DNA of 61,367 nucleotides from an uncultured Gammaproteobacteria bacterium (GCA_964356315.1 CAYHHA010000007.1:1-61367), one strand, 5' to 3'. Shown: positions 1,109-60,476, counted from the stretch's first letter. Notes: generated by a model not told the origin, from the letters alone. A program made the numbers and translations.

Positions 1109-1149
1109 CCTAGAATTAGGTATGTTCCGATTTCGTCCCAGCACGTGTA
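1105..1149 (-). repeat. Boundary repeat family A, copy 1 (encodes YTCWDEIGTYLILG*)
   Basis: Homologous to 2445-2477 with mainly third-position differences. Confidence 0.75.
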
Positions 1150-1202
1150 CAAGCAAAGTGCACTCATAAGAAGAATTGATTACATATCAAACTTTATAGA
1201 TA

Positions 1203-2342
1203 TTACTCAAGCGATAAATCTATTACTTTTTCAATTGGAGCAATTACATGATCATTTCCCTGACTCCAACTATACTCAGAATTCGCAGGATTTGAATCCG
1301 GATATTGAGGAAAATCTAAAACAGTATATTCTGCAAATAATTTTTTTAACGTTGTGGCAATGATTGGCAAAGGAATGTCTTGATTTTCAGAGCGAATTTT
1401 CTGAACGACACCATGTATTGATTCTGATAAAAACCTGAACATGCGATCACTTGCTTCAGCTTCTGATTCTCCTTTTAGCTGTGCTGGAAATTCTGCAATT
1501 TTATGAAGATTTCCAAGAACTATCGCTGACGTTTCATTTGGTTTTACATTAGATCGTTTATAGTCAAGCATCGCTAGGCCAATTTTTGCATTTCTCATTG
1601 AAAGTCGTGCTGGATTATAGAGTATTGGTTTAGTAATATCCGCTATCATATTGATTAATGATGGAGCCGATTGTGTCACCTCTGTCTGCAAATTATTATT
1701 AAATATTGGTATTCGCAGTCCACTAACGGCAATTCCTGCTATAGCTGCCAAGCCAAATTTTAGAAATTGGCGTCTGGTCATAGGTACATTAAATAGACTT
1801 CTATTAGGATCATCTTGTGTACGCTCGGACAGAATTTTATACAGGAGTGAACCGGAAAATGCCGCAAGACCTGCTCCAACTGTTTCAATTCCATATGCTC
1901 TATTTAATTCACTACGTGCAAATGCATTCTGATCTATTGGTGGTTTAAATGATAAATCAATCTTCGATAGGATAGAAAAAACTTTATCCCACGACTGATG
2001 ATCGGTCAAAGAATTTCCCGAATCTTCGGTTATTTGTGGAATATCAGCACCTATGAGCCTAACTACTGATTCAGGAGCTTGAAAATGATTACTCTTTTCA
2101 GATGGGAAATATATATCCGCATAATTACTAAAAGATCCAGGACTTAGTGAGTCTGCGGCAATAATATTTGGCCTAGGATTGATTGATGCTATCGCCGATT
2201 GTACTTCGGTAGACCAAATGGTTCTGTTTAACGGAATATCACCTGTTGCATGTTCACCAAAAACTACATGAGTTGAATGAGTACCGTAAACTTCAGTTGT
2301 GCCTAAATTCAAATTCGATTCTTCACTTACTTGATCAAACAT
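1203..2342 (-). CDS. Hypothetical membrane protein with internal twin-arginine-like motif
   Basis: 379 aa; hydrophobic segment then MTRRQFLKFGLAAIAG mid-protein. Confidence 0.7.
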   Translation of the reverse strand: MFDQVSEESNLNLGTTEVYGTHSTHVVFGEHATGDIPLNRTIWSTEVQSAIASINPRPNIIAADSLSPGSFSNYADIYFPSEKSNHFQAPESVVRLIGADIPQITEDSGNSLTDHQSWDKVFSILSKIDLSFKPPIDQNAFARSELNRAYGIETVGAGLAAFSGSLLYKILSERTQDDPNRSLFNVPMTRRQFLKFGLAAIAGIAVSGLRIPIFNNNLQTEVTQSAPSLINMIADITKPILYNPARLSMRNAKIGLAMLDYKRSNVKPNETSAIVLGNLHKIAEFPAQLKGESEAEASDRMFRFLSESIHGVVQKIRSENQDIPLPIIATTLKKLFAEYTVLDFPQYPDSNPANSEYSWSQGNDHVIAPIEKVIDLSLE

Positions 2343-2414
2343 ACGTTCATATTACATTACAGGCATGAAATTTGTAATATATATTTCAGTATAGACATTC
2401 TAGTAATTTTTCTT

Positions 2415-2477
2415 TTAAATACATATTATTGATGTATTTGATGCTAAATACGTTCCAATAGCGTCCCAACAGGTGTA
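2415..2477 (-). repeat. Boundary repeat family A, copy 2 (encodes YTCWDAIGTYLASNTSIICI*)
   Basis: Homologous to 1117-1149. Confidence 0.75.
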
Positions 2478-2546
2478 TCTAAACTGACGCATACCAATTG
2501 AATAGTAATATAGCTTCATTCCAACAAAAACAAGCGTTCGAGATCC

Positions 2547-2577
2547 CATTTAGCCTCAATTTTAACTTGAGGCTAAA
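2547..2577. repeat. Perfect 12-bp inverted repeat with 7-bp spacer
   Basis: atttagcctcaa-ttttaac-ttgaggctaaat; the ttagcctcaa arm recurs near 3631, 4665 (inverted), 6518 and 10323. Confidence 0.8.
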
Positions 2578-2731
2578 TAACGAGACACCCCACCCTGTTT
2601 CGAACTAAAGTACAAAATCCGTCAAGAGTATCCATCGATCACATATGCCTTAATATTCATCTTCTACAAAGCAACCTATATCAGGTTTCAAAATAGTATT
2701 GTGGCGAATTACCATATTATATGGATTTATA

Positions 2732-2760
2732 TTGACTAATGTAGCACATTGTGCTACGAT
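2732..2760 (+). promoter_or_regulatory. Sigma70 promoter with overlapping palindromic operator for TA pair 1
   Basis: TTGACT-17-TACGAT; palindrome gtagcaca-t-tgtgctac at 2741-2757; ATG 7 nt downstream. Confidence 0.75.
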
Positions 2761-2767
2761 TTCTTAA

Positions 2768-3052
2768 ATGATATTTGTACGCAAACTCATTTGGGACACA
2801 TGGAATATACATCATATTGCAAAACATCATATATTACCGGATGAGATTGAAGAAATTTGTCATGGGTCACCATTAATATTACAAGGACAACAAAAGAAAC
2901 GTTTAGTTTTAATCGGCCTAACAGACGAGCAATCTATATTGACAGTTGTGCTTGAATCACAAGGACACGGAGTATACTACCCAATAACAGCATATCCATC
3001 AGATTCACATGACATTACATTATATAAACATTTAAAAGGAGGTAAAAAATGA
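2768..3052 (+). CDS. BrnT-family (DUF497) type II toxin
   Basis: 94 aa, WD..N..HI.KH.I...E.EE and YPITAY motifs. Confidence 0.85.
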   Translation: MIFVRKLIWDTWNIHHIAKHHILPDEIEEICHGSPLILQGQQKKRLVLIGLTDEQSILTVVLESQGHGVYYPITAYPSDSHDITLYKHLKGGKK

Positions 3053-3330
3053 AAACAAAAACTATTCAAAAAAGTAGAATTCCACAATTTGTAAATAGAC
3101 AAGAAGAGGCTAAGTTTTGGGAGAGTCATAGCATATCTGACTTTATAGACGAACTTAAGCCTGTCAATGTGCGTTTTGCTAAAAACCTATCTGAAGGTCT
3201 TCATATTCGATTGAACTCACAAACATTACAGACTCTTCGCGAAAAAGCGAAGAATAAAGGAATTGGCCCTACAACACTTGTTCGCATGTGGATATTGGAA
3301 CAACTCCAATCAGTGCAGCAGCAGATATAG
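3049..3330 (+). CDS. CopG/BrnA-type antitoxin
   Basis: IPQF...EEAKFWESHS and IRL...A..KGIG..TL.RMWI; ATGA overlap and GGAGG SD. Confidence 0.85.
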   Translation: MKTKTIQKSRIPQFVNRQEEAKFWESHSISDFIDELKPVNVRFAKNLSEGLHIRLNSQTLQTLREKAKNKGIGPTTLVRMWILEQLQSVQQQI

Positions 3331-3354
3331 AAATATTTAATGTTCTAACGAGTA

Positions 3355-3448
3355 TCAATCGTTTTCGACGACTTCGCTTTCGTTGTTAGATGCTTCTATT
3401 AACTTAGTTAAAAACTCAAAAACTGGTTCGAAATAAAATGCACTAGGG
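3355..3448 (-). repeat. Boundary repeat family B, copy 1 (24-bp core 3425-3448; encodes PSAFYFEPVFEFLTKLIEASNNESEVVEND*)
   Basis: ggttcgaaataaaatgcactaggg identical at 3425, 4614 and 6307. Confidence 0.85.
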
Positions 3449-3456
3449 GTACATAG

Positions 3457-3487
3457 GAAAAACGCTCAGAAAATCTGAGCGTTTTTC
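3457..3487. terminator. Bidirectional intrinsic terminator-like hairpin
   Basis: gaaaaacgctcaga-aaa-tctgagcgtttttc. Confidence 0.7.
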
Positions 3488-3497
3488 GTATATTCTA

Positions 3498-3602
3498 GTC
3501 GAATTTGGACCGGTCCCCGGTTCGCCGTCCAGCAGTAGACATTTTGATTCATAGAGAAATGTCGTATTGCTGGTGAGTGCCGAGAGTTCTCGGCAATCCG
3601 GC
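3498..3602 (+). ncRNA. Candidate structured RNA/ssDNA, copy 1
   Basis: Stems ccagcagta/tattgctgg, gacattt/aaatgtc, tgccgaga/tctcggca; pairing is conserved in the copy at 6381-6486. Confidence 0.45.
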
Positions 3603-3862
3603 TGGAGATACTAAACTTTGTTGATATGTATTAGCCTCAAGGTTGTGCAAAAACCCTGATGTGACTAGCCCTGCCCCCTGGCAGGCAGGTATTTCACACC
3701 CGGCGTGTGTAAGTGCAGTCATTAATAAATCAAATAAGCTGATATATCAACGAGAATAGGGTTTGATATGATCGAGCGATTTCAATCTATTCAGCCCCAA
3801 ACCCCAACCGGACTCGAACAAATATTTTTAAATACCCTTGATAATTATTCTATATTACTGTA

Positions 3863-3890
3863 TTGACAATCAATGTACAGATGATATTAT
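3863..3890 (+). promoter_or_regulatory. Sigma70 promoter of TA pair 2
   Basis: TTGACA-16-TATTAT with extended TG; ATG 6 nt downstream. Confidence 0.65.
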
Positions 3891-3896
3891 GCAGAT

Positions 3897-4205
3897 ATGG
3901 CTTTTCGTATTAAATTTAACGAGGAAAAAAACCAACTACTAAAAGCCACGAGAGGAGTTAGTTTCGATACTGTGATTATCTCTATCAAGGAAGGCGGATT
4001 GTTAGCTGATATTCATCATCCAAACCTAAAACACTCCAAACAAAAAATATACGTTATTGTGGTTGAAGAGTATGTATACGCTGTTCCATATGTAAAAAAC
4101 AATGAAAGAAAAGAAATTTTTCTAAAGACTGTCTACCCAAGCAGGGCATTAACCAAAAAATATTTGATGAAAGGAGGTAAATATGAAAAAAATAAATCCA
4201 AATGA
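3897..4205 (+). CDS. BrnT-like type II toxin
   Basis: FNEEKN.LLK..RG.SF...HPN...Y.Y.VPYV...IFLKT.YPSR. Confidence 0.85.
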   Translation: MAFRIKFNEEKNQLLKATRGVSFDTVIISIKEGGLLADIHHPNLKHSKQKIYVIVVEEYVYAVPYVKNNERKEIFLKTVYPSRALTKKYLMKGGKYEKNKSK

Positions 4206-4494
4206 TTTATTCACTAATATATATTTAGATGCAGAAGAGAAATCTTTAGAAACAGCATTTGAAAATGATGAATTTGAAGAGGATTCTGATTTTCTTAACA
4301 CGAAGACTATGCTTGAAGAGGCTGCAAAGAATTACTTGGAATTAAATACGGCAAAACCGATTACTATTCGAGTAAATCAATTTGACCTCATTAAGGTAAA
4401 GGCGAGAGCGAAACGGAAACAAATTCCATACCAAACACTACTTGGATCCTTAATTCATCAATATGCTGAAGGAAAACAAGACGTAAGTTTATAA
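4183..4494 (+). CDS. CopG/RHH-type antitoxin
   Basis: ITIRV...DL..VK..A....IPYQTL..S.IHQY; GGAGG SD. Confidence 0.85.
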   Translation: MKKINPNDLFTNIYLDAEEKSLETAFENDEFEEDSDFLNTKTMLEEAAKNYLELNTAKPITIRVNQFDLIKVKARAKRKQIPYQTLLGSLIHQYAEGKQDVSL

Positions 4495-4549
4495 GATTTA
4501 AGTATTTTTTGATCCTAACACTTTTAGTGATAGACGGAGTAAGCAATAA

Positions 4550-4637
4550 TCAATCAGTTTCCAACATAGCTTTTTGGTATTCTTCCATTAATTTACCTAA
4601 CCATTCAAGCACAGGTTCGAAATAAAATGCACTAGGG
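4550..4637 (-). repeat. Boundary repeat family B, copy 2 (encodes PSAFYFEPVLEWLGKLMEEYQKAMLETD*)
   Basis: 24-bp core at 4614-4637; extended match ccatt(c/g)aagcaca to copy 3. Confidence 0.85.
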
Positions 4638-4771
4638 GCACTGAAACTGACGCACACTAATTTATTGAGGCTAATTACATTAGTTTATGGATTCTAATTC
4701 CATAATTTAGTCAATATTTATGCATTTAAAATCTATAACCTATCATCACGGAGTGCAAAAGACTAATTTGG

Positions 4772-5446
4772 ATGACTAAACATGCACTTGACACGTTTCT
4801 AATTACTCCTGATAATAGACAGTATATGGAAACGTATTCGCGTATTGCTTTGAGCAATCTTCTTGTTTCATCCCCGTTGAGATTATTTGACCTCACCACC
4901 TTAAAGCAGACACTCAATATCCGAAGTGAAAGTGCTTTCTACCGTATCCTAAATCAATTTGTATCAGAGAAGGTATTAGCAATCGTGAAGCCTGGCGTCT
5001 ACTACAAAGTGAATACCCCACCTGATCAGTACGAAATTGCCAACTATCTTATCCGACCTTCGTATATCTCATTCGAAACTGCTCTGAATCACCACGGTAT
5101 TTTACCTCAATTCCCTCTCATTACTACATCAGCAACAACGCAAAAAACTCAAAAGAAAACAGTGTTCAATGGCGATTACACCTATACCCATCTCTCTCCA
5201 AAAATGTTTTTTGGCTTCAAAAAATATTCAGAACATCTCTTGGCTGAACCAGAAAAATGCCTGATAGACTACGTATATCTACGGATGAAACTCGGCACGA
5301 AACCAGATATGAATGAGTGGGATTTTGAACACGTTGATACCAAAAAGCTTTCCCTCTATTTAACATACATGGAGGATGTCAAAGGATATCAATCCGTAGT
5401 TAAAATTATTTCAGAACAAACACCATGTTTACCAACGACGAAATAA
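4772..5446 (+). CDS. Type IV TA AbiEi-family antitoxin (true start may be 4826)
   Basis: wHTH N-terminus, PSYISFETAL.HHG and AEPEK.L.DY motifs. Confidence 0.85.
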   Translation: MTKHALDTFLITPDNRQYMETYSRIALSNLLVSSPLRLFDLTTLKQTLNIRSESAFYRILNQFVSEKVLAIVKPGVYYKVNTPPDQYEIANYLIRPSYISFETALNHHGILPQFPLITTSATTQKTQKKTVFNGDYTYTHLSPKMFFGFKKYSEHLLAEPEKCLIDYVYLRMKLGTKPDMNEWDFEHVDTKKLSLYLTYMEDVKGYQSVVKIISEQTPCLPTTK

Positions 5447-6204
5447 CCAAGCGCGCCAATAAAGTGCAGATCAGCCCGGTTGTAATTTACCGTGAATTTG
5501 CACAGTTATTGTTTCTTGAACGCTTATCACAGTCAAAAATGAATGCAAACTTCATTTTTAAAGGCGGTACTGCCATTAGACTTCTCATGAAAGGCGATCG
5601 CTTTTCTGAAGATCTTGATTTTACTGTTACAGACCTCACAAGCGATCAGGTCGTTTATATATGCACATCTCTTGTCAGACAAATGAATTCCGAAGTAACC
5701 GTATCGATGAAATCTACTCCTTCACCATCAGGTCTTTCGCTCAAATTATATATTGCAGCACCATTTCAAAAACAAACCATACCTATCAAGCTAGACTTCT
5801 CATTCCGTGAAATTTCAATTGATGTAATTCATAGCACAATTATTTGCGATTATCCGATCATTTTCCGAAATCTGTGTTATTACTATTCACCTCGTGAAAT
5901 GATTGCTGAAAAAGTTCGTGCCCTTTTACACCGTCAGAAGGGTCGTGATCTCTACGATCTGTGGTTCTTGCTTTCCATGCAGGCGGAATTTGATGAACAG
6001 TTGATCGCGAAAAAATTAGCATACTATTCAGAAACTTTTTCAAAATTAGAATTCATTGAAAAAATACAAAGTTTTCCGAAGAAAGATTTCGTTGCGGATC
6101 TACTTCCCTTCATTGGTAAAAAAGAACGAGATTCTCTTGATACCCTCTACGGGGTCATTCAGTCGTATCTCATGCAAAAATTAAATGAAGTAACTGCAAA
6201 ATAA
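5425..6204 (+). CDS. AbiEii/AbiGii nucleotidyltransferase toxin
   Basis: FKGGTAIRL, RFSEDLDF, AEK.RA, RDLYDL. Confidence 0.9.
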   Translation: MFTNDEITKRANKVQISPVVIYREFAQLLFLERLSQSKMNANFIFKGGTAIRLLMKGDRFSEDLDFTVTDLTSDQVVYICTSLVRQMNSEVTVSMKSTPSPSGLSLKLYIAAPFQKQTIPIKLDFSFREISIDVIHSTIICDYPIIFRNLCYYYSPREMIAEKVRALLHRQKGRDLYDLWFLLSMQAEFDEQLIAKKLAYYSETFSKLEFIEKIQSFPKKDFVADLLPFIGKKERDSLDTLYGVIQSYLMQKLNEVTAK

Positions 6205-6267
6205 GATATAATCATCACAGAGGACTAGCAATCCTTTTTAGATTACATTAACTGCCTCAGATTTGTT

Positions 6268-6330
6268 CTAATATACTTCTATTAACTCATCCACCATTGA
6301 AGCACAGGTTCGAAATAAAATGCACTAGGG
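6268..6330 (-). repeat. Boundary repeat family B, copy 3 (PSAFYFEPVLQW, then after a 1-nt shift DELIEVY*)
   Basis: 24-bp core at 6307-6330. Confidence 0.8.
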
Positions 6331-6588
6331 ATACTGTATAAATAATCTCGCATCATAGCGGGATTTTTTATGCACTCTCGGTGGGATTTGGACAGGCTTA
6401 CCGGTTCGCAGTCCAGCGGTAGATAATTCGATTCCCAGAGAATTGTCGTACTGCTGGTGAGTGCCGAGTGCGCTCGACAATCTGGCTTGGGGGGGGGTAC
6501 AAATTTAGTTGAAACAATTAGCCTCAAATATCCCGATGTTTCTAGCCCTGCCTGCCGACAGGCAGGTATTTCACACACGGTGTGTGTA
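6307..6588. repeat. ~290-bp composite non-coding element, copy 2
   Basis: Colinear with 3425-3712; right part nearly identical to 10320-10391. Confidence 0.85.
6381..6486 (+). ncRNA. Candidate structured RNA/ssDNA, copy 2
   Basis: Stems ccagcggta/tactgctgg, gataattc/gaattgtc, tgccgag/ctcgaca. Confidence 0.45.
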
Positions 6589-6596
6589 ATAATGTA

Positions 6597-8612
6597 TTAC
6601 TTGGAATTAAGCTCACTACTTTTGGATGCAGGTTCTGTAGTTAATAACAGTTTAATATCTTTTATAATCGTCAAAATATCTTCTGAATCCTCATCGGATG
6701 TATAGTATATTTGGTCACCATTTTTCTGAACCTGCTCATAAATACCCTTCCCATATTGCTTAACAAATAAATCTTTAACTATCGACTCCTTCTTATTGAA
6801 ATACGATTCAATTATCTCTTCTTTAGGAAATCGATTAGCTAGCAACGAAACAACTTCTAAAAGCTCTGGATAACCATCATACTTTGGATTTGAAAAGATT
6901 AATGATTGTGATTTTAATAATTTAGCTAGTAGTTCAGAAGTCAAGAAATCCGTAATACCTTCATTTAAAAATTTTGGGTATGATCTTTCTGAGTAATACG
7001 TTCTGAAGTGGAGCATCTCATGTAATAAAGTATGGATATAATAAGACATTCTATATTCCTGTCCGGGATAGAGTTTAATATATATATTGTTTGGTGAATC
7101 AAAGACTCCAGCCTGAATTTCAGGTGTTACAGGATCTTTCAGAAAATTTGAGTATGATCTTTGCCATGCAGCCAAATTCAAATTCCATTTTGGCCTAACG
7201 TCTATGTACTCTTTAAGATAACTTTCGCTTTGGTTCTTATCTGAAATTATCTGGCGTAGGCTGTTTTCAATCGTTTGTTTCCCCTCCCTGCAAATAGATT
7301 CATCCTTTCCTAGGTTTGATTCACAAGCAGATATCCAACCCTTTCCATAGGATTCGTATTTACGATACTCTCCATCAGAAGCGCTAATAGCGTTTTTCAA
7401 ATCTATAATCGAATTATCAATTTCTTTTATAGTGTTGCGTACATCTTGTATTCCATACAACAAACTATTCTCTATTTCTTTTTCTTTCTTCTTTTGCACG
7501 AGGATGTACTCATCGACTGGAAGAAATGATACTATTGGCTTTTTTAAAGATTTGTTTAAATAGTCTTTATAGTTGGAGTCTAGTAACTTACTAGCGAGAA
7601 CTATGGATAATTTTTCAATTGTGATGTTGCTTGGATTATTTGAAATTAAAGTATGCGATGGAAACAATAAGACTTCAAATTTAACTTTTTCTTTTAACGA
7701 AGCTGACTCTGACGCATAAAGTAGGCTTGGAATAATTACAGAACGATATAATGTATCTTTATCCGTATGTGAAATCTTCTTATATTGCAATACGACTTCG
7801 GTAACTGGGTCGTATTCAAAAAATGCCGGAATCGCTAGTTCCTTTTCTATAGCTTCACTAATACCTTGAATCGATTCAATTATACCTACCTTAGATCTTT
7901 CCTCTGAAGAGGATAATATATCAATTGAGGTAATAATTTCTTGATTTGCTTGTTTAGTTAACCCAAATATTACGTAAGTTGGAACGTAAGAATAGAGTGC
8001 AAATATTATAACTGGGTAGGCTTGTTGAATTAGTAAAAATATTAATAAAAATCTTTTTGCTACCACCCTCCGTAATTTGTAAATAACCCACAGAGAAAAA
8101 GCCACACTAAAGACCAGAAGCAGCGCTATAAAAATCCCGTCGTATCCACAAAAGGACCAAGAGCTCGTACTTAATGAACAAGTAAATTTCTGTAATAGCA
8201 AAGAAGTTGGGTTAGTTATGAATGAGTCAGCGACATCAAAAAGTTTACTTGTAATCGCAAAATTCCACTTCTGATTATATGATACCCAGAGTGATCCAGC
8301 CGTGCAAATTGAAAATATAGCCAAATATGCTAAATATCGTAAATTAAAAAACAGTTGCAGCACTGCATTCCTGAGGCTATATTTTTTTGCGTTCTTGACC
8401 TTTTTTTTACGTTTAGAACGTAAAGGGGATGTTGCGTGTTTATGTTTTTTACGTAAAAAATAGTAAATAGTTGATAAACCAAAAAAAGGCAAAAACCAAA
8501 GGAGTGAACTAAATGATTTATTAATAATTGACTGAACAATTCCGCCAAAACCCACACCTATTATAATTGCTACTACCAGTAGAGTAATACCTTTTATAAT
8601 TAGATTAATCAT
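6597..8612 (-). CDS. Polytopic membrane protein with coiled coil and C-terminal zincin metallopeptidase domain
   Basis: Several N-terminal TM segments; HTLLHEMLH...FLNEGITD. Confidence 0.75.
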   Translation of the reverse strand: MINLIIKGITLLVVAIIIGVGFGGIVQSIINKSFSSLLWFLPFFGLSTIYYFLRKKHKHATSPLRSKRKKKVKNAKKYSLRNAVLQLFFNLRYLAYLAIFSICTAGSLWVSYNQKWNFAITSKLFDVADSFITNPTSLLLQKFTCSLSTSSWSFCGYDGIFIALLLVFSVAFSLWVIYKLRRVVAKRFLLIFLLIQQAYPVIIFALYSYVPTYVIFGLTKQANQEIITSIDILSSSEERSKVGIIESIQGISEAIEKELAIPAFFEYDPVTEVVLQYKKISHTDKDTLYRSVIIPSLLYASESASLKEKVKFEVLLFPSHTLISNNPSNITIEKLSIVLASKLLDSNYKDYLNKSLKKPIVSFLPVDEYILVQKKKEKEIENSLLYGIQDVRNTIKEIDNSIIDLKNAISASDGEYRKYESYGKGWISACESNLGKDESICREGKQTIENSLRQIISDKNQSESYLKEYIDVRPKWNLNLAAWQRSYSNFLKDPVTPEIQAGVFDSPNNIYIKLYPGQEYRMSYYIHTLLHEMLHFRTYYSERSYPKFLNEGITDFLTSELLAKLLKSQSLIFSNPKYDGYPELLEVVSLLANRFPKEEIIESYFNKKESIVKDLFVKQYGKGIYEQVQKNGDQIYYTSDEDSEDILTIIKDIKLLLTTEPASKSSELNSK

Positions 8613-9727: not shown

Positions 9728-10441
9728 ATGATATATACAACCCTTATTCATAAGGCAATTCAATTTGCCATAAAAACCCATGAGCTTGACGCTAAGCAGA
9801 GAAGAAAAGGAACAGATGTTCCTTATGTTACTCACCCACTAACGGTCGGAATAATTCTTAGCCGTGTAACGGATGATGAAAATATCATTGCAGCTGGTAT
9901 ACTCCACGACACCATTGAAGACTGCGAACCATATGGGACTACCACAAAAGAGATGATCACAGAGAAGTTTAATAGTGAGATAGCGCAAATGGTTGATGAT
10001 GTGACGGAGCAGGATAAGACCCTCTCATGGATGGAACGAAAATTAGCAGCATTTGAACATATCAAACACATGAATCATGGATCACTACTCGTGAAGTCAG
10101 CTGATGTGCTTCACAATCTGACTGAGCTAAATGATGATGTTGCCACGAATGGAATTAGTGTATTTAGTAAATTTAATGCCTCTCAGGAGGATACGATCCA
10201 AAGATACCAAAAGCTTATTCCTGAAATCCAAAACACTTGGATTGAAAATCCGATATGCGATGATTTGCGCATTGCACTTGAGACGCTTATTAAAGCTACA
10301 TTACCGCCAAAGAATGTATCAATTAGCCTCAAATATCCCGATGTTTCTAGCCCTGCCTGCCGGCAGGCAGGTATTTCACCCCAGGTGTGTACTAGTATTT
10401 GCTTTGCCAAAAACGCCATATTGAGCATAAATATTCTTTGA
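9728..10441 (+). CDS. HD-domain protein, Mesh1/small alarmone hydrolase-like, with repeat-derived C-terminus
   Basis: Q.RKG...PY..HP..V, AGILHDTIED, LVKSAD.LHNL. Confidence 0.85.
   Translation: MIYTTLIHKAIQFAIKTHELDAKQRRKGTDVPYVTHPLTVGIILSRVTDDENIIAAGILHDTIEDCEPYGTTTKEMITEKFNSEIAQMVDDVTEQDKTLSWMERKLAAFEHIKHMNHGSLLVKSADVLHNLTELNDDVATNGISVFSKFNASQEDTIQRYQKLIPEIQNTWIENPICDDLRIALETLIKATLPPKNVSISLKYPDVSSPACRQAGISPQVCTSICFAKNAILSINIL
10320..10391. repeat. Partial composite element, copy 3, with CCTGCCTGCCGGCAGGCAGG palindrome
   Basis: Near-identical to 6515-6587; lies inside the HD ORF. Confidence 0.85.
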
Positions 10442-60107: not shown

Positions 60108-60476
60108 TGCGGGATCGTATTTCATACTGAGCAAAGCTGCGAGATCGTACTGTGTCCCTCGAAGCCCGAAGGGCGAAGTGGGATAATGGTAGACGTCCCG
60201 CTGAGCGGGATTATCTAGGTTCATTGAAAATATACATATGTTAGCAAAGTTGCGGGATCGTATAATGGTAGTACGCATCCCTCTGGAGGATGTTATCTAG
60301 GTTCGAGTCCTAGTCCCGCAGCTTTGCCAATATTTTGGTGCCGATAGCAGTACATCGTCCTAGTCCCGCAGCTTTGCTCAGTAATAATAGTAGTACGTCC
60401 CGCTAAGCGGGATTATCTAGGTTCGCCCGCCTGCATCGCTTTGCGAAGCAAATCGGGAAGGAGTCCTAGTCCCGCA
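60108..60476 (+). pseudogene. Two split, degenerate tRNA-Gln copies nested around the intact gene
   Basis: Fragments at 60108-60120, 60138-60222, 60357-60370 and 60384-60476 match parts of 60251-60321. Confidence 0.8.
60251..60321 (+). tRNA. tRNA-Gln (anticodon CTG), no encoded CCA
   Basis: Acceptor TGCGGGA/TCCCGCA, anticodon arm CATCC-ctCTGga-GGATG, T arm CTAGG-TTCGAGT-CCTAG. Confidence 0.95.

Follow-up and report, generated by a model that had tools for sequence, protein, structure and literature searches.

A folded element with tRNA-derived arms bounds cassettes beside tRNA genes in a family of Patescibacteria

INTRODUCTION

Integron attC sites are folded, imperfectly palindromic sites at the ends of cassettes, with the consensus RYYYAAC in R'' and GTTRRRY in R', and their structure is kept through compensatory change. 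Integron arrays grow at one anchor, the attI site beside intI, and consist of small cassettes with or without a promoter, which often carry toxin–antitoxin (TA) genes; gene-less cassettes occur. A folded single-stranded site is also used by the CTX phage, whose attP is formed from two inverted dif-like sites, has dif as its target and is used by the host XerCD. The genomes of Patescibacteria are tiny and contain few mobile elements that can be recognised; even so, they differ widely in accessory and defence genes. Here we describe a structured element, module A, that is present twice in a 61,367-nt stretch of DNA from genome G000 (GCA_964356315.1, CAYHHA010000007.1:1-61367; the whole stretch is called the window) and recurs beside tRNA genes in one family of Patescibacteria. 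On balance we favour the reading that module A, by a logic like that of attC, serves as the folded attachment module of non-autonomous, recombinase-less cassettes with tRNA genes as their insertion target.

The resemblance to integrons lies in the folded, imperfectly palindromic site, whose structure is conserved while its sequence varies and which stands at the cassette 3' end in the arrays of genomes G028 and G031, and in the small cassettes themselves, which grow in number at one anchor. The anchor is a tRNA gene instead of attI; unlike in attC, the outer arms copy the target tRNA and the unpaired joining strands are conserved in sequence. When read by eye, neither the ends of the + strand (CCGGTTCG and (C)AATCCGG) nor those of the - strand (CCGGATTG and CGAACCGG) fitted the R''/R' consensus, and no IntI-type integrase was found beside the array, either in the array region of the window or among 72 open reading frames (ORFs) at 29 module A loci. 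The parallel with CTX attP is that of an enzyme-less element with a hairpin-folded target mimic, which would depend on the strand and on a resident recombinase; the target of module A is a tRNA gene and not dif, and no single-stranded DNA (ssDNA) phage or replication module is linked to it. As in attL and attR sites, a direct repeat corresponds to the segment of the adjacent tRNA up to its 3' (or 5') end, and no integrase gene lies inside the units bounded by module A. Williams, in 2002, is said to have distinguished a T-loop sublocation class of integrases.

Tycheposon-type elements have tRNA genes as their integration sites, where one insertion after another builds up an island (bioRxiv 10.1101/2020.12.28.424599). 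These and other tRNA-integrating islands share with module A arrays the partial tRNA copies at both sides, the displacement of older units outward by newcomers, the accumulation of remnants and the accessory or defence cargo. Such elements come with replication genes and a recombinase (tyrosine or serine) of their own, whereas module A units carry none and many are only ~150 nt long; a hairpin core splitting the displaced tRNA fragment, which module A always has, is not described in the passages of the preprint that were consulted. Cis-mobilizable elements (CIMEs), too, are att-flanked, integrase-less units mobilised in trans that form tandem arrays at the 3' ends of tRNA or other genes. CIMEs are described as several-kb deletion derivatives with ordinary att sites, in contrast to 150-nt hairpin modules with a conserved structured core. 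In its logic module A combines tRNA-anchored island growth with a folded, attC-like cassette end, and the defining features of neither are present in full. A limited literature search, which is no proof of absence, returned nothing on tRNA fragments split by hairpins, nor on mini-cassettes of this kind in Patescibacteria.

RESULTS

Two copies of a folded element in the window

An earlier note, made from the window sequence alone, had reported a duplicated element of ~105 nt with several stems. A BLAST search against the own genome returned copy 2 with an E-value of 8e-36, and a repeat search of the window paired 3517-3603 with 6401-6487 (87 nt, 84% identity) and 3648-3712 with 6525-6589 (65 nt, 83% identity). 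The repeat is real, and its total length is ~215 nt. It is a composite, in which module A is followed by a separate element, module B, which makes up the 3' half and resembles repetitive extragenic palindromic (REP) sequences. A third copy of module A was found in G000 on contig C15 (C15:32968-33096). The order of parts in module A is hairpin P0, hairpin P1, arm X, a 70-nt core (joining strand J1, hairpin P2, joining strand TGAGT and hairpin P3) and arm Y; the positions are given in Table 1.

The stems described in the note were present in both copies, with compensatory change. In P2, CCAGCAGTA/TATTGCTGG of copy 1 and CCAGCGGTA/TACTGCTGG of copy 2 differ by two one-sided wobble changes, and the comparison of GACATTT/AAATGTC with GATAATT/AATTGTC showed one true T-A to A-T flip and one wobble. 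One-sided wobble changes predominate between the window copies, with this single true flip. The proposed closing stem did not hold up, as GCCG/CGGC of copy 1 is not kept across the module A family. Folding of copy 1 on the + strand gave z-scores of -6.8 (DNA) and -6.1 (RNA), and 0 of 200 shuffles folded as well. For copy 2, which is decayed, the scores were -1.1 and -1.4, and 29 and 18 of 200 shuffles, respectively, did no worse. Both window copies fold better on the + than on the - strand, with DNA and with RNA folding.

Module A is a patchy family with covarying helices

A pattern scan of species-representative genomes detected module A copies in records titled Gottesmanbacteria or Patescibacteria. 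We then used a covariance model (R1) built from 12 sequences. Module A was found in 33 of the 81 genomes of the family to which the window belongs, in 12 of 35 genera, with one to nine copies each; both same-genus relatives of G000 were without it, and outside the family it was found in 1 of 143 genomes in an even sample of the class. Module A is a patchy, multi-copy family largely within one lineage of ultra-small bacteria.

In an alignment of 42 distinct sequences pairing holds in 95.2% of the cells, and both sides vary at 14 of 20 pairs. None of 500 shuffles reached these pairing and covariation values and slid controls paired in 31-47%, counts that are strong indications and not probabilities, as the alignment was fitted to the model and its rows are related. 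On the tRNA-sense strand there were 29 G·U cells against 19 A·C cells (26 against 11 minus one doubtful pair), a modest asymmetry among non-independent cells and a moderate sign that this is the folding strand. Sequence is conserved as well, as TGAGT in the joining strand and as GUAMYC in the P3 loop.

The covariance model and homologue search that the earlier note had suggested thus yielded many homologues and strong covariation, and the fact that the note recognised no known family in the element agrees with our Rfam searches. With Rfam 15 at gathering thresholds, the sole match in the whole window was tRNA-Gln at 60251-60321, with none on module A; in region 3300-6800, searched with E-values up to 10, six matches were obtained, all with E ≥1.5 and none across the core of the element. 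A hammerhead-like reading of CUGGUGAG was judged by eye, had no Rfam match and was dropped. A coding reading of module A was also rejected: the overlapping ORFs (3549-3722 and 6282-6578 on the - strand, 6457-6705 on the + strand) have no Pfam match and are not common to both copies.

The arms of module A match neighbouring tRNA genes

By comparison with adjacent genes, module A appears to be a copy of a tRNA from the T-arm to the 3' end, split by the core between positions 4 and 5 of the T-loop. In other genomes it lies 32-51 nt behind tRNA-Glu, just past the terminator of that gene, and has the same last 17 nt as the tRNA. Behind a tRNA, X consists of the 5' strand of the T-stem and TTCG, and Y of AAT, the 3' strand of the T-stem and the 3' strand of the acceptor stem. 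Upstream of tRNA-Glu, X corresponds to the first 10 nt of the tRNA and Y to its D-loop, with the core between GCCCCGTTCG and CTAGCGGCC.

We examined 39 module A copies for tRNA-derived flanks. A tRNA gene was present within 400 nt of 26 copies, on the same strand in 25 of these. The last 17 nt of the tRNA were matched by 11 of 20 downstream copies with at most two mismatches, and the first 10 nt by 4 of 5 upstream copies with at most one. The T-loop and 3'-end type was observed behind tRNA-Glu, tRNA-Asn or tRNA-Cys and the type containing the first 20 nt before tRNA-Glu, and the loop letters follow the identity of the tRNA (TTCG/AAT for Glu, TTCA/ATT for Cys, TCCG/AGT for Asn). The Y arms of G000 read CCGGCTGG.., as do the ends of its own tRNA-Glu genes, and those of other genera CCGGCACGG. 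All 39 copies stood in a tRNA-derived context and none outside one.

The core always follows GTTCG, GTTCA or GTCCG, and does so at two distinct places in tRNA-Glu. Such a preference, together with a hairpin at either core end, would also suit a miniature inverted-repeat transposable element (MITE) of the HUH type (IS200/IS605-like or IS91-like), in which the 70-nt core is mobile, P2 and P3 are the end hairpins and insertion occurs after GTYCR in T-loop-like DNA; IS91 targets GTTC. In addition, a Y1 transposase gene (PF01797, E 2.8e-8), similar to REP-associated tyrosine transposases (RAYT), adjoins the C15 copy and is one of six such genes in G000. We regard this explanation as distinctly improbable. 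The C15 gene (C15:33113-33793) is flanked on both sides (C15:33090 and 33928) by the hairpin CACACCNGGNGTGTG of module B, which explains its presence without module A. PF01797 (Y1_Tnp) was detected in 60 of the 81 family genomes at E 0.001 or better, and no match was obtained in 10 of the 33 module A carriers, including G091 (seven copies), G095 (five) and G084 (five); by this co-occurrence the Y1 transposase was ruled out as the mover. Empty targets were also missing: the 22-mer that runs unbroken from the tRNA-Glu T-loop to the end of the gene occurred at most three times per genome in the 81 genomes, approximately the number of tRNA-Glu genes. Since there is no surplus of uninterrupted 22-mers, the core and the duplicated tRNA fragment would arrive together, and the 39 of 39 copies in tRNA-derived context also argue against a core that moves alone. 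IS200/IS605 MITEs (palindrome-associated transposable elements, PATEs) and REP sequences co-occur with a Y1 transposase able to move them and insert at short targets without duplicating these, so that empty target sites exist; neither feature held for module A.

Two side observations concern the arms. At locus L069 (G082:C29) a single core lies between two adjacent tRNA-Glu genes, with a T-loop arm on its left and a D-loop arm on its right. Recombination of a downstream with an upstream unit through their cores would leave such an arrangement. In G002, a congener of G000 without module A, two other mini-units of the same architecture were found behind both tRNA-Glu genes (L092, G002:C4; L088, G002:C5). 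Their cores are different and shorter, for example GCGGTTCG, a 26-nt hairpin and ATTCATCCGGCCAGGGGGGTAC, from which the split-T-arm design would be wider than the present covariance model.

Transcription of module A

A terminator-like hairpin was present upstream of 26 of the 39 copies and downstream of 4. No sigma-70-like promoter was found ahead of either window copy, although adjacent cassettes carry clear promoter-like sites of the type TTGACA-16/17-TATTAT. Because the terminator lies in front of the element and not behind it, and no promoter precedes the window copies, module A is not a typical transcription unit. No RNA run was found that covers 2700-6700 of the window. Three DNA read runs and one RNA read run gave fragmentary contigs; an RNA contig touched ~20 nt of the element, by chance, and the sole read joint, from 1157 to 6419, was cross-mapping of the C15 copy.

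These results bear on the possibility, which we consider unlikely, that module A is a structured non-coding RNA (ncRNA) linked to tRNA genes. Its transcription, in the tRNA sense, would run on past the tRNA terminator or start at a weak T-tract promoter, and its tRNA-like 3' segment would serve, for example, as a decoy or partner of a tRNA-binding factor. An RNA would account for the strong covariation in two helices, the conserved TGAGT and GUAMYC strands, the excess of G·U over A·C on the tRNA-sense strand and the more stable RNA fold on the + strand, and with no Rfam match it might be an undescribed one. The arrangement of terminators and promoters speaks against this, as does the distribution, since 48 of 81 family genomes, both congeners included, manage without module A while others hold one to nine copies with differing subtypes in tandem. 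Moreover, the 3' strand of the acceptor stem has no 5' partner, so that no tRNA-like minihelix would form. That module A is a recombination site is more probable than that it is an RNA gene, and conserved 'RNA-like' structures beside tRNA genes should not automatically be annotated as ncRNA genes.

Three functions had been offered in the earlier note. An RNA antitoxin and a guide RNA have no support, as no promoter and no RNA run covering the element were found and the neighbouring TA pairs are ordinary protein systems of type II/IV. The third, an attC-like substrate, fits best, because module A bounds cassettes beside tRNA genes, contains T-arm/3'-end copies, is patchy and multi-copy and has its terminator in front and not behind; classical attC sites are a different matter, given the deviation from the R''/R' consensus.

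Arrays of cassettes and their turnover

In G028 and G031 the order was tRNA-Glu(CUC), module A, gene, module A, gene, module A, with accessory genes between the modules, and in the window module A copy 1 is followed by TA cassettes and module A copy 2. The composition of such arrays differs between relatives. Genomes G095 and G091 are alike (flank identity was not computed), but a 129-nt upstream unit distinguishes them, which has the 10-nt tRNA 5' end as its boundary and carries a promoter-like TTGATA-17-TTTAAT; at the same downstream site they hold different module A subtypes. The tandem copies of G074 are each nearest to copies of other genera (0.88-0.93 identity) and share <0.77 identity with each other, and the copy of G091 is nearest to copies in G071 and G000. 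The three copies of G000 cluster at 0.78-0.85 identity, and their next nearest relatives are copies of two other genera. From these identities, module A subtypes appear to be common to different genera. Only the upstream flanks of G000 are conserved in the congeners G001 and G002, and insertion boundaries are not readable from them.

The mutual closeness of the three G000 copies and the decay of copy 2 (mismatched P3, G-run in the Y arm, fold z-score of about -1) could be taken to mean that module A copies are inert scars, namely leftover attachment arms of extinct integrative islands that are similar by descent, with the window copies produced by local segmental duplication. Although no enzyme was found, which would also agree with scars, we judge this very improbable: pairing-preserving changes on both sides at 14 of 20 pairs across genera are not a product of neutral decay, subtypes are common to several genera and different subtypes stand in tandem, and units differ between relatives as close as G095 and G091.

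A proposed scheme of insertion

In the reading that we favour, cassettes would pile up beside tRNA-Glu, and also beside tRNA-Asn and tRNA-Cys, and the module would be a mimic of the tRNA-gene target, split into X and Y by the 70-nt two-hairpin core. A circular or otherwise excised unit of the order X-core-Y-rest would recombine with the tRNA gene. With a crossover in Y the tRNA would gain a fresh 3' end and terminator and [X-core-Y] would be displaced downstream; the unit opened in Y would read tRNA, then Y-terminator-P0-P1-X-core, then Y. A crossover in X would give the upstream mirror image and supply a promoter and a new 5' end, and the unit opened in X would read X, then core-Y-promoter-X, then the rest of the tRNA. 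The tRNA would stay intact either way, and repeated rounds would build arrays. From the anatomy we infer that the arrangements in front of and behind a tRNA derive from a single order by circular permutation, and the 129-nt upstream unit that distinguishes G095 from G091 supports such a scheme. The hairpins would probably be read single-stranded or extruded, on the tRNA-sense strand, by an enzyme supplied in trans, the same logic as for integron attC or the folded CTX attP. Each window copy would be the end of an old unit, in an array that has since decayed.

The enzyme was looked for among neighbours and candidates. No protein family common to module A neighbours was found, and PF00589 (tyrosine recombinase) had no match in the array region of the window. 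G000 has five tyrosine recombinase genes, located on different contigs or, on C15, at a distance of 13 kb, and two conserved tyrosine recombinases (~320 and 289 aa) are common to the five genomes richest in module A; these are candidates only. The G000 islands that carry a recombinase at the same tRNA (serine, C15:29018-30517; tyrosine match, C15:15992-16414) end in other junctions and not in module A. A mechanism of the IS110/bridge RNA type was rejected, as PF01548 was detected in two of the five richest genomes and never beside a module A copy, and so was a large serine recombinase as the mover: 10 loci with such genes, 6 of them with a tRNA in a 10.5-kb stretch, gave no match to the model at E <0.01.

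Several results weigh against the proposed scheme. A site-specific recombinase was encoded by 0 of the 72 neighbouring ORFs at the 29 module A loci, and among 31 ORFs at 12 metagenome loci there was likewise none, with one DDE transposase of an insertion sequence. In IMG/VR a specific pattern gave 0 matches and a loose pattern at least 115 loci, of which 80 were scored with the model and none matched; no module A match was found in phage or plasmid collections. Neither a circular form nor an excision junction was seen in the read assembly, which yielded fragmentary contigs only. X tracks the neighbouring tRNA even in the unpaired loop letters, which a crossover confined to Y would be insufficient to explain alone. 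G001 has the same tRNA terminator as G000 without module A, so that unit boundaries in this genus are tentative. The limits given above for the covariation counts and the G·U/A·C asymmetry apply here as well.

If the scheme is true, a self-folding, recombinase-less module would explain how TA and other cassettes gather at fixed hot spots, because the module targets tRNA genes and repairs them on insertion. The 70-nt core with its defined arms would be a concrete recombination substrate, and, if read in folded form, a second natural example, after integron attC and CTX attP, of integration that is specific for structure and not for sequence. A bolder version, possible in our view and still doubtful, is an undescribed, integron-like gene gain in ultra-small bacteria, in which enzyme-less cassettes with a 'split target mimic', folded as ssDNA or RNA, would program their own insertion into a tRNA gene while rebuilding the tRNA, and a resident housekeeping recombinase, or some as yet unrecognised enzyme, would carry out the reaction.

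Other repeats and islands around the array

Table 1. Positions of module A, module B, junction repeats and cassettes in the window
Feature	Position	Strand	Remarks
DR-x junction	1118-1157	+	GTTCCGATTTCGTCCCAGCACGTGTAC AAGC; 95% identical to right end of serine-recombinase island at tRNA-Glu(UUC) on C15
Second DR-x-like junction	2445-2477	+	GTTCCAATAGCGTCCCAACAGGTGTA
BrnT-like toxin and CopG antitoxin cassette	2768-3330	+	toxin match weak
D1a ('B core'), 63-nt repeat	3390-3452	+	ends in 28-nt pseudo tRNA 3' end GGTTC-N16-GGGGTAC
Intrinsic-terminator-like hairpin before copy 1	3457-3487	+	part of repeated unit
Module A copy 1	3490-3615	+	covariance-model match 115 bits, E 2.8e-35
Copy 1, P0	3492-3504	+	hairpin
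Copy 1, P1	3507-3523	+	hairpin ('ggac..gtcc')
Copy 1, X arm	3517-3524	+	CCGGTTCG; T-stem 5' strand and first half of T-loop
Copy 1, 70-nt core	3525-3594	+	J1 3525-3528, P2 3529-3573, J2 TGAGT 3574-3578, P3 3579-3594
Copy 1, Y arm	3595-3611	+	AATCCGGCTGGAGATAC; second half of T-loop, T-stem 3' and acceptor 3' strands of tRNA-Glu, decayed
Module B copy 1	3630-3712	+	ATTAGCCTCAA.., CCTGATGTGACTAGC, palindrome 3670-3689, hairpin CACACCCGGCGTGTG 3695-3709
102-aa protein of unknown kind and CopG-type antitoxin cassette	3897-4494	+	between module A copies; promoter-like site 3863-3890
D1b	4579-4641	+	same repeat, without terminator or module A
224-aa protein and AbiEii nucleotidyltransferase toxin cassette	4772-6204	+	promoter-like site 4788-4816
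D1c	6272-6334	+	same repeat, ahead of module A copy 2
Intrinsic-terminator-like hairpin before copy 2	6344-6365	+	
Module A copy 2	6373-6504	+	covariance-model match 107 bits, E 1.4e-32
Copy 2, P1	6390-6407	+	
Copy 2, X arm	6401-6408	+	
Copy 2, core	6409-6478	+	P2 6413-6457, J2 6458-6462, P3 6463-6478 with C.A mismatch
Copy 2, Y arm	6479-6500	+	AATCTGGCTTGGGGGGGGGTAC; decayed, G-run
Module B copy 2	6517-6589	+	palindrome 6547-6566, hairpin 6572-6586
Module B copy 3	10320-10390	+	without module A; 94% identical to copy 2

Module B was also found alone in G000 at C10:46089-46163. It consists of a conserved CCTGATGTGTCTAGC box, a 20-nt palindrome CCTGCCTGCCGGCAGGCAGG that occurs eight times in the genome and the hairpin CACACCNGGNGTGTG, of which there are at least seven copies in the genome, two of them in tandem on contig C60. 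Short GC-rich palindromes (~8 in the genome) and a hairpin flanking a Y1_Tnp gene are likewise features of REP sequences, of the bacterial interspersed mosaic elements (BIMEs) and of their RAYT. By this likeness module B appears to be a REP-like family separate from module A, which lies outside that family and occurs in genomes with no Y1_Tnp match. A 671-aa protein without a Pfam family (weak Ist1 and MscL matches) is encoded at 6597-8612 on the - strand and ends 8 nt past module B copy 2.

A 'B core' repeat followed by a terminator-like hairpin precedes each window copy of module A, as the earlier note had described, and a third repeat of this kind stands without module A (D1a, D1c and D1b, respectively). 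The D1 repeats contain a 24-mer in three exact copies, with 0 expected, and the last 10 nt of D1a are the end of tRNA-Glu(CUC). Five junctions of the form GGTTC-N16-GGGGTAC/GTGTAC were recognised in the window: the two DR-x junctions and the ends of the D1 repeats at 3425-3452, 4614-4641 and 6307-6334. The junction form measures 28 nt, as against 23 nt in the real tRNA end, and each junction closes a one- or two-gene cassette. The 28-nt form precedes a terminator and module A in G007, in G146 and at locus L014; in G028 its place is taken by a 17-nt form. We infer that D1 and DR-x are att-type junctions left by serine-recombinase islands that crossed over at the tRNA-terminal GTAC. The order of the array would then be island, DR-x, a gene for a 379-aa protein, second DR-x, BrnT/CopG and D1a, followed by terminator, module A copy 1, module B copy 1, TA pair, D1b, AbiE pair, D1c, terminator, module A copy 2 and module B copy 2.

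An island of this kind was found on C15 directly behind tRNA-Glu(UUC) (L076, C15:29018-32936, 3.9 kb). It carries a rolling-circle Rep gene (PF23343) and a large serine recombinase gene (C15:29018-30517) whose 3' end overlaps the tRNA 3' end. The first 189 nt of the window contig are 90% identical to the inside of this island, and contig C12 ends with tRNA-Glu(CUC) and the first 105 nt of the same island. A second island copy, 90-98% similar, starts behind tRNA-Glu(CUC) at the end of C12 and would continue into the window start. As the C12 end and the window start both match one island, the array in the window most likely stands behind tRNA-Glu(CUC).

Recombinase islands were also noted at other tRNA genes and positions. 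As at tRNA-Glu in G000, large serine recombinase genes lie within ~1 kb of tRNA-Asn at L234 and L235 (G084 and G031), an indication that islands of this class insert at the very 3' end of tRNA genes throughout the family. On C15 the 5' part of tRNA-Glu(UUC) recurs as a 48-nt copy (C15:15378-15425), which was found 13.5 kb upstream of the intact gene, beside the tyrosine recombinase match, and suggests a 13.5-kb island that replaced the 5' part of the tRNA.

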